8,718 nucleotides of DNA from a virus (Duplodnaviria; Heunggongvirae; Uroviricota; Caudoviricetes), in the IMG/VR virus record IMGVR_UViG_2681813271_000005. One strand, given 5' to 3'. Within the stretch, counting starts at the first letter, position 1. Each line of letters begins with the position of its first letter. The translations under genes and the position numbers were made by a program. Under the pieces are notes generated by a model. That model was given only the letters and a program-made list of their open reading frames with translations, was not told the DNA's origin and did no database searches. This document shows positions 1,225 to 8,718 of this stretch, in pieces.

Positions 1225-4923
<3,699 letters not shown>

Positions 4924-6036: not shown

Positions 6037-6078
6037 ACAATAACAATAACAATAACAATAACAATAACAATAACAACA
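6037..6078. repeat. Hexanucleotide tandem repeat (ACAATA)x6 plus one imperfect unit (ACAACA)
   Basis: Read directly from the sequence: six perfect ACAATA units at 6037-6072 and ACAACA at 6073-6078. It sits between the stop of the 5379-6035 gene and the AAGGGA ribosome-binding site of the 6092 gene. Confidence 0.9.
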
Positions 6079-6091
6079 AAGGGATTTCAGT

Positions 6092-6364
6092 ATGGATATC
6101 GGTGCTATTTTAGCTCTTGTTATTTCTGGATGCGTATTCCTTTATACTATCTTTAGAGATAATACAAAGGATACGAATGATCTATTAACTCGCGTTGCTA
6201 CTCTTGAAACTACCATTGCTGTACTGGAAAGTAGTATTTCCCGTATTGAGGATGATCAGGATAAGATGAGAGATACACTAAGTAAACTGGAAACACAAAT
6301 CCATGAACTTGATGTTAAGATTGAAAGGATTATTGCAATTCTTCAGCAGAAACAACGACCATAA
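6092..6364 (+). CDS. Small membrane-anchored coiled-coil protein (one N-terminal TM helix); candidate lysis regulator, spanin-like or superinfection-exclusion protein
   Basis: 90-aa ORF with AAGGGA (6079-6084) 7 nt upstream. The N-terminus IGAILALVISGCVFLYTIF is a hydrophobic helix of about 20 aa. The rest is charged with heptad-like periodicity (LETTIAVLESSISRIEDDQDKMRDTLSKLETQIHELDVKIERIIAILQ). It ends at the bidirectional terminator and is convergent with the lysozyme gene. Confidence 0.55.
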   Translation: MDIGAILALVISGCVFLYTIFRDNTKDTNDLLTRVATLETTIAVLESSISRIEDDQDKMRDTLSKLETQIHELDVKIERIIAILQQKQRP

Positions 6365-6365
6365 A

Positions 6366-6402
6366 AAAAGGCATAGTATGTCATTCGTACTATGCCTTTT
6401 CT
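6366..6402. terminator. Bidirectional rho-independent terminator
   Basis: Perfect 9-bp stem GGCATAGTA (6370-6378) / TACTATGCC (6388-6396) with a 9-nt loop. An A-run (6363-6369) lies upstream and a T-rich tract (6397-6415) downstream, so it works on both strands. It sits between convergent genes, with the - strand stop codon at 6403-6405. Confidence 0.8.
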
Positions 6403-6852
6403 TTATTTGTTTTTAAGTACTGCAATCATGGAATTCACACGGTTTGGTGTCTGCCTGTACCATAGAGAACACTTAGCCTGTTTAATTGCTTCAAGGTAAT
6501 CATGTGCTTTCAGGGCTGCTAACATCTTACGGAATTTCTTCACCCCGCCAATACCTAACTGGAAGGTCATGATAATAATAAAATCATTCCAGTCATCGGG
6601 AAGATTTAACCCTAATGTCTGTACCTGCATAATTGTTTTGGCTAAATCGCGAGATAGTAACTTGTCTGCTTCGCTTTCAGTAATGCCAGTACTAAAATCT
6701 TCTCCCGCCTGAATTAAGTGACCATATCCAATAGTACTACATCCTAAACTATCAGCATATGGATAGAATTTCCCATTTCTGAAGTACTTCAAATTTGCCT
6801 GATACTCTTTAGTACCTTCATATTCTTTTAATCGTGTTTTTAAATCGCTCAT
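6403..6852 (-). CDS. Endolysin, T4 lysozyme-like (glycoside hydrolase family 24 muramidase)
   Basis: 149-aa ORF. The catalytic signature E12-G ... YAD34SLGCST40IGYGHL matches the T4 lysozyme Glu/Asp/Thr triad and the TIGxGH motif. The C-terminal SLWYRQTPNRVNSMI closely matches T4 lysozyme SRWYNQTPNRAKRVI, and MTFQLGIGGV matches MVFQMGETGV. No N-terminal hydrophobic (SAR) segment. Confidence 0.9.
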   Translation of the reverse strand: MSDLKTRLKEYEGTKEYQANLKYFRNGKFYPYADSLGCSTIGYGHLIQAGEDFSTGITESEADKLLSRDLAKTIMQVQTLGLNLPDDWNDFIIIMTFQLGIGGVKKFRKMLAALKAHDYLEAIKQAKCSLWYRQTPNRVNSMIAVLKNK

Positions 6853-6862
6853 TTACTAAATA

Positions 6863-6881
6863 CCTATAATGAATTTATAGG
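6863..6881. promoter_or_regulatory. Perfect palindrome CCTATAA-N5-TTATAGG in the 36-bp divergent intergenic region; contains a TATAAT -10-like hexamer (6865-6870); candidate operator or divergent promoter core
   Basis: Read directly: CCTATAA (6863-6869) and TTATAGG (6875-6881) are reverse complements. TATAAT sits 18 nt upstream of the ATG at 6889, with AGGA (6879-6882) as ribosome-binding site. On the - strand, TATAAA (complement of 6872-6877) lies upstream of the lysozyme start. Confidence 0.35.
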
Positions 6882-6888
6882 AATATTT

Positions 6889-7323
6889 ATGATGAGTGAA
6901 TGGAAATACTCGGATGATTGGAGCGAGGAGGAAATGTTATCCGGTGAATATGCTGGTTTCGTTTATATCTTTCAGTTTGAGGATGGTTCTAATTATGTCG
7001 GTGCTAAGCAAATCTATCAGCGGGTTAAGGATGCGAGAAAGCTAAAGCCCACTTCAAAGGAAAATGGCTGGCGTGAGTACCTCAGTAGTTCCAATGTCGT
7101 TAAAAACAAAATTGAAAATGGTGAACAGTACTCAAAAACGATTCTATGGTGCTTCGCAACTATGCGAGAGGTAATGATTGTAGAGGCAATACTGATCCTT
7201 CATCAGATGCTTAAACCGGAATGTTTGAATCTGGCAATGATGAGTAAGATTAGATCACCAAATGCAAAGGATAAAAAAAGACTACTCGGAATAGTACAGG
7301 AACTATTGGAGTACTTGAATTGA
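6889..7323 (+). CDS. GIY-YIG family nuclease, short free-standing catalytic domain (homing-endonuclease-like)
   Basis: 144-aa ORF. AGFVYIFQFEDGSNYVGAKQIYQRVKDAR matches the GIY-(10-11 aa)-YVG motif plus the conserved Arg, as in I-TevI SGIYQIKNTLNNKVYVGSAKDFEKRWKRH. A downstream MREVMIVEAI is consistent with the conserved catalytic Glu helix. There is no long C-terminal DNA-binding domain. Confidence 0.7.
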   Translation: MMSEWKYSDDWSEEEMLSGEYAGFVYIFQFEDGSNYVGAKQIYQRVKDARKLKPTSKENGWREYLSSSNVVKNKIENGEQYSKTILWCFATMREVMIVEAILILHQMLKPECLNLAMMSKIRSPNAKDKKRLLGIVQELLEYLN

Positions 7324-7332
7324 GGTAAATAT

Positions 7333-7911
7333 ATGGCAAGTGGAATAAATGGGATTGGTAGTATAAGGAACTATATACAAACGCAGGGAGTTAGATTAAA
7401 TAATCAATTCCAGAATGAAATAATTAAACGTTCCAAGCTACTATCCCAAAGAATGCAGGGTGATTTGAATAATAGCGTTGACCGTGGGGCAGTGGGCTTT
7501 ACTCAACGTTCCATCCTTTTCTTCTATAGAAAGGTTGGGAGAAATTCAGTTACATCGACCATCATGGTTAAAGATATTCAGGCTAAGTACCTTTATCAAG
7601 TACTGGTACAGCCAAAGGCAATTGATAAGTTTATACCTACTTCATCTACAAGATTAACTAAGCAGGGCAACATTTCAGGACTGAAAAAGAATCTTTTAAG
7701 TGAACGATATAAGGTAGTGAAGGGTAAGAATGGTAAAGAACGATTAATTGATACCGCAAAGAAAGATACCAAGAAGAAAACCAAACGTGTAATTGGCTTA
7801 CGTGAGAAGAAACAACGTCGCCTTATCTATGACTTCTATAAGGAAGCCAATGATGGTGTAAGGGTAATTATGAGCGGTATTCAGGGAACATTCAGGATAA
7901 GTAGACAATGA
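7333..7911 (+). CDS. Hypothetical protein with a strongly basic Lys/Arg-rich C-terminal region; possible nucleic-acid-binding protein
   Basis: 192-aa ORF with GAGGT (7322-7326) 6 nt before the ATG. Lys/Arg-rich tract KGKNGKERLIDTAKKDTKKKTKRVIGLREKKQRR. The stop overlaps the next start (ATGA at 7908). Confidence 0.5.
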   Translation: MASGINGIGSIRNYIQTQGVRLNNQFQNEIIKRSKLLSQRMQGDLNNSVDRGAVGFTQRSILFFYRKVGRNSVTSTIMVKDIQAKYLYQVLVQPKAIDKFIPTSSTRLTKQGNISGLKKNLLSERYKVVKGKNGKERLIDTAKKDTKKKTKRVIGLREKKQRRLIYDFYKEANDGVRVIMSGIQGTFRISRQ

Positions 7912-8219
7912 ATTTTGAGCAACATTATGGTGATTTAATAAGCAAGATTAAGCTAAATGGCATGACACCAGATGGTAATAGTATGCCAATTAACAAATGT
8001 TTTCTTGATAAGAAATTTCAAAAGGTCGTTAAGAAAAGTAATTATCAGATTGATAGCTATATGAACGTTATTTATGAGAAGAAGAAAGATTTCAAAGTTG
8101 GTGAAGTACTTGAATGGGAATTACAGGGTGAAAAGATGCCTGTATTTCTAATTGAGAGTAAAAAGCTCTTTGTGAAGGGTAAACATTTTTGGGTATATGC
8201 CGTGGGGATTATTGAATGA
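7908..8219 (+). CDS. Hypothetical protein
   Basis: 103-aa ORF coupled by ATGA overlaps to the upstream gene (7908) and the downstream gene (8216). No recognisable motif. Confidence 0.45.
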   Translation: MNFEQHYGDLISKIKLNGMTPDGNSMPINKCFLDKKFQKVVKKSNYQIDSYMNVIYEKKKDFKVGEVLEWELQGEKMPVFLIESKKLFVKGKHFWVYAVGIIE

Positions 8220-8249: not shown

Positions 8250-8565
8250 NNNNNNNNNNNNNNNNNNNNNNNNNNNNNNNNNNNNNNNNNNNNNNNNNNN
8301 NNNNNNNNNNNNNNNNNNNNNNNNNNNNNNNNNNNNNNNNNNNNNNNNNNNNNNNNNNNNNNNNNNNNNNNNNNNNNNNNNNNNNNNNNNNNNNNNNNNN
8401 NNNNNNNNNNNNNNNNNNNNNNNNNNNNNNNNNNNNNNNNNNNNNNNNNNNNNNNNNNNNNNNNNNNNNNNNNNNNNNNNNNNNNNNNNNNNNNNNNNNN
8501 NNNNNNNNNNNNNNNNNNNNNNNNNNNNNNNNNNNNNNNNNNNNNNNNNNNNNNNNNNNNNNNNN
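8250..8565. other. Assembly gap (run of N)
   Basis: 316 consecutive N characters read directly from the sequence. Its true length and content are unknown. Confidence 0.99.
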
Positions 8566-8639: not shown

Positions 8640-8718
8640 ATGAGTGATGCAATTACTACAGCAGCAATAAAAAAATTGTATGGACTATCCGCTGGGCAAT
8701 GTAATATTTGCCGAACTT
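8640..8718 (+). CDS. 5' end of a hypothetical gene running off the window; contains a C-x2-C motif
   Basis: ATG at 8640 with AAGGA (8627-8631) 8 nt upstream. It translates MSDAITTAAIKKLYGLSAGQCNICRT with no stop before the window ends. The CNIC motif could begin a zinc-binding or HNH-type domain, but the fragment is too short to say. Confidence 0.35.
   Translation, partial: MSDAITTAAIKKLYGLSAGQCNICRT

Follow-up and report, generated by a model that had tools for sequence, protein, structure and literature searches.

A membrane-anchored coiled-coil protein beside the lysozyme gene of a Shigella sonnei prophage: a candidate divergent relative of the Mu releasin (DUF2730)

We analyzed a stretch of phage DNA of 8,718 nucleotides (the window) and focused on the open reading frame at positions 6092 to 6364 of its plus strand, which encodes a small single-pass membrane and coiled-coil protein of 90 residues (TM-CC). 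Our best explanation, in which we place moderate confidence, is that TM-CC is a divergent member of the DUF2730 superfamily, that of the releasin gp25 of phage Mu, and acts as an accessory protein of lysis. The protein combines a membrane-anchored coiled-coil architecture with conservation and synteny across related loci and with a collinear profile similarity to DUF2730; its topology, its dimeric state and its role in lysis we infer. Releasin was absent from the candidates listed in the first-pass annotation of this DNA, which had considered i-spanins, antiholins, holins and superinfection-exclusion proteins and had suggested a lysis-related role. That role is favored by the adjacency to the lysozyme gene across the lineage and by the similarity to DUF2730, while the spanin and holin candidates named for it fare badly.

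Results

The window is part of a Shigella sonnei prophage. The exact 90-residue protein is found in S. sonnei chromosomes (e.g. HE616528.1), and the prophage adjoins mipA at the same chromosomal site in many genomes. Its packaging genes are of the lambda type, with a Phage_portal_2 portal, a gpA-type terminase (174 and 148 bits) and a Nu1-like small subunit, and it further carries a protease-capsid fusion and a tail-tip module made up of Dit, DUF6950 and Phage_Tail_Tip proteins. No cultured relatives of the capsid and tail-tip proteins were found above ca. 31% identity, and the genomic context of the best cultured match, phage DCP80, was uninformative. By megablast, the region had no match in complete-genome collections of phages and E. 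coli, and tblastn of the 90-residue protein against phages gave one chance match (E 1). The 1100-residue tail-tip gene (1621 to 4923) is intact in the window and interrupted by insertion sequences in several S. sonnei genomes, as seen when the window gene was compared with loci L001, L002, L004, L006 and L015; the prophage is thus decaying in S. sonnei.

The TM-CC gene begins with an ATG located 7 nt behind a Shine-Dalgarno motif read from the sequence (AAGGGA, 6079 to 6084), and its translation is MDIGAILALVISGCVFLYTIFRDNTKDTNDLLTRVATLETTIAVLESSISRIEDDQDKMRDTLSKLETQIHELDVKIERIIAILQQKQRP. Close homologues number 113; Enterobacter, E. coli and Shigella account for most of them and other Enterobacterales for a few. 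Among 1.8 billion representative proteins, a search with a profile returned approximately 27 clusters (50% identity) at E<1e-10, the matches being full-length at ca. 79 to 97 residues apart from a few truncated fragments. Every sufficiently long contig carries the gene at a fixed position and at 23% to 100% identity. Eleven contigs found through their capsid genes were recovered in the TM-CC search as well, the other capsid contigs being mostly too short to include the region. Judged by sequence comparison, the gene is under purifying selection, with dN/dS values against relatives of 0.07 to 0.25 in comparisons with unsaturated dS, and homologues, selection and profile comparison confirmed in this sense that the reading frame is a real gene and goes beyond a chance ORF.

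One N-terminal transmembrane helix followed by a charged, heptad-like coiled coil had been proposed for the protein, and both elements were borne out. Residues 3 to 21 (IGAILALVISGCVFLYTIF; codons at 6098 to 6154) form the top-scoring 19-residue Kyte-Doolittle segment of the protein with a mean of 2.42, a hydropathy peak that by the same measure far exceeds those of all other proteins in the window, with the N-terminus of the tail-tip protein as the one exception. Met-Asp alone precedes this helix and a conserved juxtamembrane Arg22-Asp23 pair follows directly after it. A single heptad register, read by hand from the sequence output and considered with an AlphaFold2 model, then extends across residues 31 to 87 (codons at 6182 to 6352) and comprises eight heptads without a stutter, 15 of the 17 a and d positions being hydrophobic. 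The a positions (V35, I42, I49, Q56, L63, I70, I77 and L84) are mostly beta-branched and the d positions (L31, L38, L45, I52, M59, L66, L73 and I80) mostly leucine. Q56 at a core a position is kept in most members of the TM-CC family and is invariant in the closest homologues, while R34-E39 and D55-R60 could serve as g-e' pairs. By established coiled-coil rules, the a/d pattern suggests a parallel dimer. The AlphaFold2 model, for which a 40-sequence alignment was used as input, shows residues 4 to 88 as one continuous helix with a mean pLDDT of 92.

The distribution of charges around the transmembrane segment is uniform across the family. Lysine or arginine precedes the segment in 0 of 40 members, most of which have aspartate or glutamate there, and the 15 residues that follow it contain a mean of 3.35 lysine or arginine residues in the same 40 members, a pattern also shown by Mu gp25. 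Together with the positive-inside rule, this predicts an N-out/C-in topology with a cytoplasmic coiled coil. TM-CC would then have 2 residues before and 69 residues after its transmembrane segment, compared with 4 and 73 in gp25. Spanins, on the other hand, are N-in/C-out, carry lysine or arginine before the transmembrane segment, are longer and contain two helical segments. Three i-spanins analyzed alike, including lambda Rz and the 99-residue protein of locus L022 described below, have lysine or arginine before the segment, as do all other i-spanin controls judged by eye. The predicted C-in orientation thus speaks against TM-CC as the inner-membrane subunit of an Rz or LysB type spanin, as do its soluble domain, which is an unbroken 69-residue helix with no hinge, and the lack of cysteine in that domain in 37 of 40 members.

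The TM-CC gene (plus strand) is convergent with a lysozyme gene at 6403 to 6852 (minus strand), and the bidirectional terminator that the two genes had been proposed to share was recovered as a hairpin at 6363 to 6403. This hairpin folds with -21.7 kcal/mol on the plus strand (z -8.3) and -19.1 kcal/mol on the minus strand (z -6.8), and because it is bordered by one run of A and one of T, which provide U-tracts on both sides, it should be able to end transcripts arriving from either direction. No terminator was found between the TM-CC gene and the late genes upstream of it. The lysozyme itself is a soluble GH24 (T4-type) protein of 149 residues (PF00959, 45.7 bits) without a SAR, signal or transmembrane segment and without a hydrophobic N-terminus (highest KD19 0.85). 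Its closest phage matches, at ca. 47% identity, are the lysozyme domains of jumbo-phage baseplate-hub or tail lysozymes, not free endolysins. Inverted repeats of the kind that would point to an invertible segment were not present around the lysozyme gene.

Two further elements occupy the neighboring spacers. The lysozyme and GIY-YIG genes diverge from a spacer of 36 nt in which a palindrome, CCTATAA-TGAAT-TTATAGG, occupies 6863 to 6881. Its plus strand includes TATAAT and its minus strand TATAAAT, and it may represent putative overlapping divergent -10 elements, serving the lysozyme gene and the rightward genes, or an operator. The spacer 5' of the TM-CC gene holds 6.7 copies of a hexanucleotide repeat, (ACAATA)n, at 6037 to 6076, the copy number of which differs among S. 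sonnei genomes (roughly 1-2, 5, 6, 8 and 10). At the site of this repeat, ca. 40 nt before the ATG, relatives have a conserved TATAAATA box which is often its sole occurrence in 10 kb, and the repeat may have taken the place of an element resembling a promoter. We do not claim the TATAAATA box as a T4-type late promoter; it is not enriched across these phages.

TM-CC adjoins the lysozyme gene in ca. 55 related loci, down to 23% identity, although these loci are not independent samples and gene order kept within one lineage is weak functional evidence. The adjacency holds in both observed gene orders and in one locus with a co-directional lysozyme gene. The common order is tail tip, (genes for proteins of 98 and 218 residues), TM-CC, lysozyme on the opposite strand, GIY-YIG, and genes for proteins of 192, 103 and 97 residues. 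Based on these sequence comparisons, the fixed core is formed by TM-CC, the lysozyme, the GIY-YIG protein and a holin. The SegE-like GIY-YIG protein (144 residues; 6889 to 7323, plus strand) occurs at the same position in all related loci with enough sequence, shows 36-100% identity across loci and has no extra DNA-binding domain. Such constant placement is unlike that of a sporadic homing endonuclease, and the protein may have become domesticated within the module. The two conserved genes for the 192- and 103-residue proteins (7333 to 8219, plus strand) are shared across related loci, and no informative family or PDB match was obtained for either product. Their homologues lie straight after the tail-tip gene and 5' of TM-CC in L025 (6043 to 6956), L086 and L087 (443 to 1353), so the two genes do not belong to the fixed part of the lysis core.

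Variants of this arrangement are informative. L086 represents the second gene order (order B), in which the genes for TM-CC, the lysozyme, the GIY-YIG protein and the holin are contiguous, while L025 has a lysozyme remnant only and no holin. In L024 the TM-CC and lysozyme genes point in the same direction, and the terminator 3' of TM-CC is retained. L022 (9093 to 9903) has an unrelated holin of 96 residues followed by the 99-residue i-spanin-like protein and a 75-residue lipoprotein with an LSGC lipobox, which matches LysC at 26.0 bits, just below the cut-off of 27. This locus therefore holds an i-/o-spanin pair of its own besides TM-CC. In the scanned regions of the other loci checked, the Shigella prophage included, no spanin candidates were found.

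The first-pass annotation had reported no canonical holin with two or three transmembrane helices in the window, which is explained by an N run (8250 to 8565) that masks most of a holin candidate gene. This gene, located four genes downstream of TM-CC at 8216 to approximately 8579 (plus strand), encodes a GTA_holin_3TM type protein of 97 residues in unmasked copies (L003, 12125 to 12418). The N run spans 316 nt compared with 246 nt of real sequence, so that the reading frame is broken in the window and the end coordinate is approximate. The Shigella copy of the 97-residue protein lies above the Pfam threshold for GTA_holin_3TM (25.0 vs. 24.8 bits) and also matches a holin PHROG. A separate holin candidate is present in all complete loci, either of the GTA_holin_3TM type or, in L022, of another type. 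Two holin alleles that are ca. 42-46% identical to each other have been swapped among near-identical prophages, and identical TM-CC proteins are paired with both of them (L003 vs. L004 and L047). In L086, a holin of 81% identity is found together with a TM-CC protein of 26% identity. At the level of these alignments, the pattern shows mosaic exchange confined to the holin.

The window ends within a gene for a 264-residue protein with an N-terminal HNH nuclease domain; the gene covers 8641 to 8718 here and runs on outside (L003, 12479 to 13273). The HNH domain resembles CBASS/SAVED-HNH effectors and PDC-M68A (E 2e-21 to 4e-23). The gene belongs to a variable cargo region 3' of the holin, in which other relatives carry AbiGi-like or other genes.

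Mu gp25 comprises 99 residues in an N-out/C-in topology, 4 of them periplasmic and 73 forming the cytoplasmic domain (PMC9239132); it is not a holin. It is annotated as releasin and DUF2730 (Pfam PF10805, InterPro IPR020269) and is a member of phrog_736. In the only published survey, DUF2730 was confined to Mu-like phages among 34 cultured isolates, and no known role was given for DUF2730 proteins paired with soluble endolysins. Comparing TM-CC with gp25 by BLASTP yielded 24% identity and a pairwise E of 0.004. Matches to phrog_736 were obtained for the window protein (E 3e-4) and for the family members P0119 (1.8e-7, its top family) and P0129 (2.8e-5). Rz-like spanin PHROGs score about as high as phrog_736, and controlled tests of the link to DUF2730 were therefore run; because coiled-coil and transmembrane sequences inflate profile scores, we relied on decoys. 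An ungapped alignment with gp25 (shared positions MD..LAL and R34-V35..L38-E39) had only 15 identities in 90 positions and a negative score and was set aside.

Using hhalign, the TM-CC family alignment (A2) matched an alignment of Mu-type gp25 only at 72% probability and a diverse DUF2730 alignment (A4) at 91.5% (E 8.7e-7) over 71 collinear columns, which extend from the transmembrane segment to the C-terminal motif. The gap-stripped score of A2 against A4 was 43.2, compared with 20.0 +/- 4.3 (maximum 33.4) for 200 A4 decoys in which columns were permuted in heptad blocks while the transmembrane segment was kept; none of the 200 reached the real score. We further scored five DUF2730 proteins of different Mu-like phages with the TM-CC family HMM, namely gp25 and four proteins taken from Table S1 of the releasin paper (Vibrio 1.028.O, Pasteurella AFS-2018a, Pseudomonas JBD25 and Alteromonadaceae B23). 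All five scored 12.0-16.4 bits, whereas six controls consisting of i-spanin or transmembrane-plus-coiled-coil proteins scored -0.6 to 7.5 bits. When whole heptads were permuted and the transmembrane segment was kept, decoys reached the real HMM scores in 0-11 of 300 trials. The HMM alignments were also mutually consistent, with a 2-residue insertion in DUF2730 at its conserved proline.

Several observations set TM-CC apart from typical DUF2730 proteins. The invariant DUF2730 proline (P53 in A4) is absent, the aligned position being without proline in every soluble domain of A2. The PF10805 gathering score was not reached in the family, the best member P0129 scoring 23.8 bits against a cut-off of 24.9 and Mu gp25 scoring 50.4. 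PF10805 is assigned to the window protein and to many relatives in a precomputed Pfam table, with PF10805.15 entries mostly flagged 'weak', and it was not among the 25 best Pfam matches of the window protein. Recognized DUF2730 proteins were not retrieved by the family HMM in the search of 1.8 billion proteins. With respect to gene position, we looked for placement downstream of the endolysin gene at a distance of up to five genes, as in DUF2730; the TM-CC gene adjoins the endolysin gene but lies upstream of it, convergent in most loci and co-directional in L024. Finally, the phage is not transposable, as seen from its gpA/Nu1-type terminase, Phage_portal_2 portal and fixed integration site. 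Overall, we regard the evidence from sequence profiles for remote homology between TM-CC and DUF2730 as good, not conclusive. Given the score below the Pfam cut-off, the missing proline, the non-transposable phage, the upstream gene and the non-SAR endolysin, TM-CC would be a divergent releasin variant and not a plain member.

Other database searches gave less specific results. Pfam, NCBIfam, PADLOC and PDB sequence searches with TM-CC or its family returned sub-threshold coiled-coil matches only (PspA, FlaC, CLZ, SMC, EzrA, sigma-1 and GCN4 fusions), and the source names 'PspA/IM30', 'EnvC' and 'CwlO-like' probably stem from matches of this kind. Weak spanin matches were present, to the 'Rz-like spanin' family phrog_739 (E 2.7e-5), to phrog_89 and phrog_7686 for some members and to TIGR03495 LysB for P0129 (E 0.003), but in the converse direction true i-spanins received 7.5 bits or less from the family HMM.

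Discussion

Among known systems, TM-CC most resembles Mu gp25 and other DUF2730 proteins. It shares with them a length of ca. 90-100 residues, an acidic N-terminus of few residues, one transmembrane segment, a predicted N-out/C-in topology, basic juxtamembrane residues, a helical cytoplasmic domain of ca. 70 residues, a hydrophobic LL(L)E-type end motif and a gene close to the endolysin gene. It differs in its unbroken heptad coiled coil without the invariant central proline, in staying below the Pfam gathering score and in its phage, a cos-packaging, site-specifically integrated prophage as opposed to a transposable one. Unlike that of gp25, its gene is upstream of and convergent with the endolysin gene, and it is accompanied by a holin and a GH24 lysozyme that is soluble.

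If TM-CC is a divergent releasin, it would insert into the inner membrane with its two-residue N-terminus in the periplasm and its 69-residue C-terminal helix in the cytoplasm, and it would dimerize via the cytoplasmic coiled coil, probably in parallel. It would then assist the holin-endolysin pathway as an accessory factor and be part of a conserved lysis cluster that ends the late region of a prophage with lambda-type packaging. As the cognate lysozyme is soluble, the release of a SAR anchor, which is the mode of action of Mu gp25 and the only one demonstrated in this family, is not available to TM-CC.

A second possibility, which overlaps with the releasin explanation rather than opposing it, is that TM-CC is a holin cofactor or antiholin whose coiled coil binds the charged N-terminal cytoplasmic segment of the holin and times hole formation, comparable to XhlA and XhlB. 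XhlA works with the holin XhlB in PBSX of Bacillus subtilis. Like XhlA (PF10779), TM-CC is a small membrane and coiled-coil protein with a separate holin and lysin, encoded in a lysis cassette that follows the tail genes. It shares its cluster with the holin, all four core genes being contiguous in gene order B. There are also weak XhlA-type matches, to PF10779 at 29.2 bits in P0129 and to the 'hemolysin' families phrog_1193 and phrog_937. The PF10779 match, however, is below the Pfam threshold (29.2 vs. 34.7 bits) and covers the coiled coil only, and in XhlA, a protein of a Gram-positive host, the domain order is the opposite, with the coiled coil first and the transmembrane segment last. Moreover, holin alleles move independently of TM-CC, as in L003 compared with L004 and L047 and in L086, and the L022 holin is unrelated; this independent pairing makes a holin-specific partner unlikely. 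A dual start of the holin/antiholin kind was rejected, since the MGM or MIM found in some relatives adds no charge. We consider a cofactor of this type unlikely.

TM-CC could also be a membrane protein expressed from the prophage, involved in superinfection exclusion or lysogenic conversion and encoded in a small transcription unit of its own. The TATAAATA box ca. 40 nt upstream in relatives and the strong terminator would together give a moron-like layout of promoter, gene and terminator, and the gene is located just after tail-tip and fiber genes. In other siphophages, genes such as cor lie just after the tail-tip or fiber genes. Superinfection exclusion, which had been among the initial suggestions, nevertheless fits poorly with a core gene that keeps its position across 23% to 100% identity while the variable cargo lies further right, after the holin. 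PADLOC returned no match to a defense family beyond coiled-coil noise, and the lack of a terminator 5' of TM-CC leads us to expect late read-through into the gene. Taken together, we see only a small chance for this explanation.

That TM-CC is the holin itself, with one transmembrane segment and a charged cytoplasmic tail, is very improbable. The protein is small, has one transmembrane segment and a highly charged C-terminal domain and is encoded next to the endolysin, but every complete locus contains a separate holin candidate, the nearest relative Mu gp25 is not a holin, and the GTA_holin_3TM protein four genes downstream makes the proposed holin role unnecessary.

The weakest of the explanations, and one we find hardly tenable, is the i-spanin with an outer-membrane partner: the N-terminal transmembrane segment followed by a charged helical domain, the lysis neighborhood and PHROG matches of similar weakness do recall i-spanins such as lambda Rz, P2 LysB and Mu gp23 (phrog_739, 89 and 214), and no other spanin was found in the ca. 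28 kb of Shigella prophage scanned (a spanin could still be encoded in the early region), yet TM-CC has none of the N-in/C-out topology, the basic residue before the transmembrane segment, the two helices or the o-spanin partner, no lipobox ORF being embedded, overlapping or neighboring and none occurring in ca. 28 kb (L003, L013). To our knowledge, i-spanins always have an o-spanin lipoprotein gene. The spanin pair that L022 encodes in addition to TM-CC also speaks against this explanation.

One additional likeness may serve as a lead only. PspB is a single-pass inner-membrane protein of ca. 75-90 residues with a cytoplasmic leucine-zipper-like helix. TM-CC is similar to this component of the envelope stress response (TIGR02976) in size and architecture, and P0129 matches it at E 0.0035; the score of 17.6 bits is far from the threshold of 51.7, however, and a PspC or PspA context is missing.

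Conclusion

In conclusion, we characterized a conserved membrane-anchored coiled-coil protein in the lysis cluster of a Shigella prophage and suggest, with moderate confidence, a divergent releasin of the DUF2730 superfamily. Among the classes of phage lysis proteins, releasin is the latest addition. With distinctly lower confidence, we speculate that DUF2730-type proteins could be general membrane-tethered lysis factors of the cytoplasmic face, which also occur in non-transposable phages that use a holin and a soluble endolysin, and which may gate the holin or interfere with the Psp system in the manner of PspB. The releasin explanation would correct database names such as 'PspA/IM30 family protein' that are based on coiled-coil similarity alone. 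If it is true, TM-CC is a fixed element of a lysis core that includes a GIY-YIG protein and mostly has no recognizable spanin nearby, and the TM-CC branch, carried by widespread uncultured prophages of Enterobacteriaceae, would provide a second and simpler genetic system in which to study DUF2730 proteins together with a soluble endolysin.
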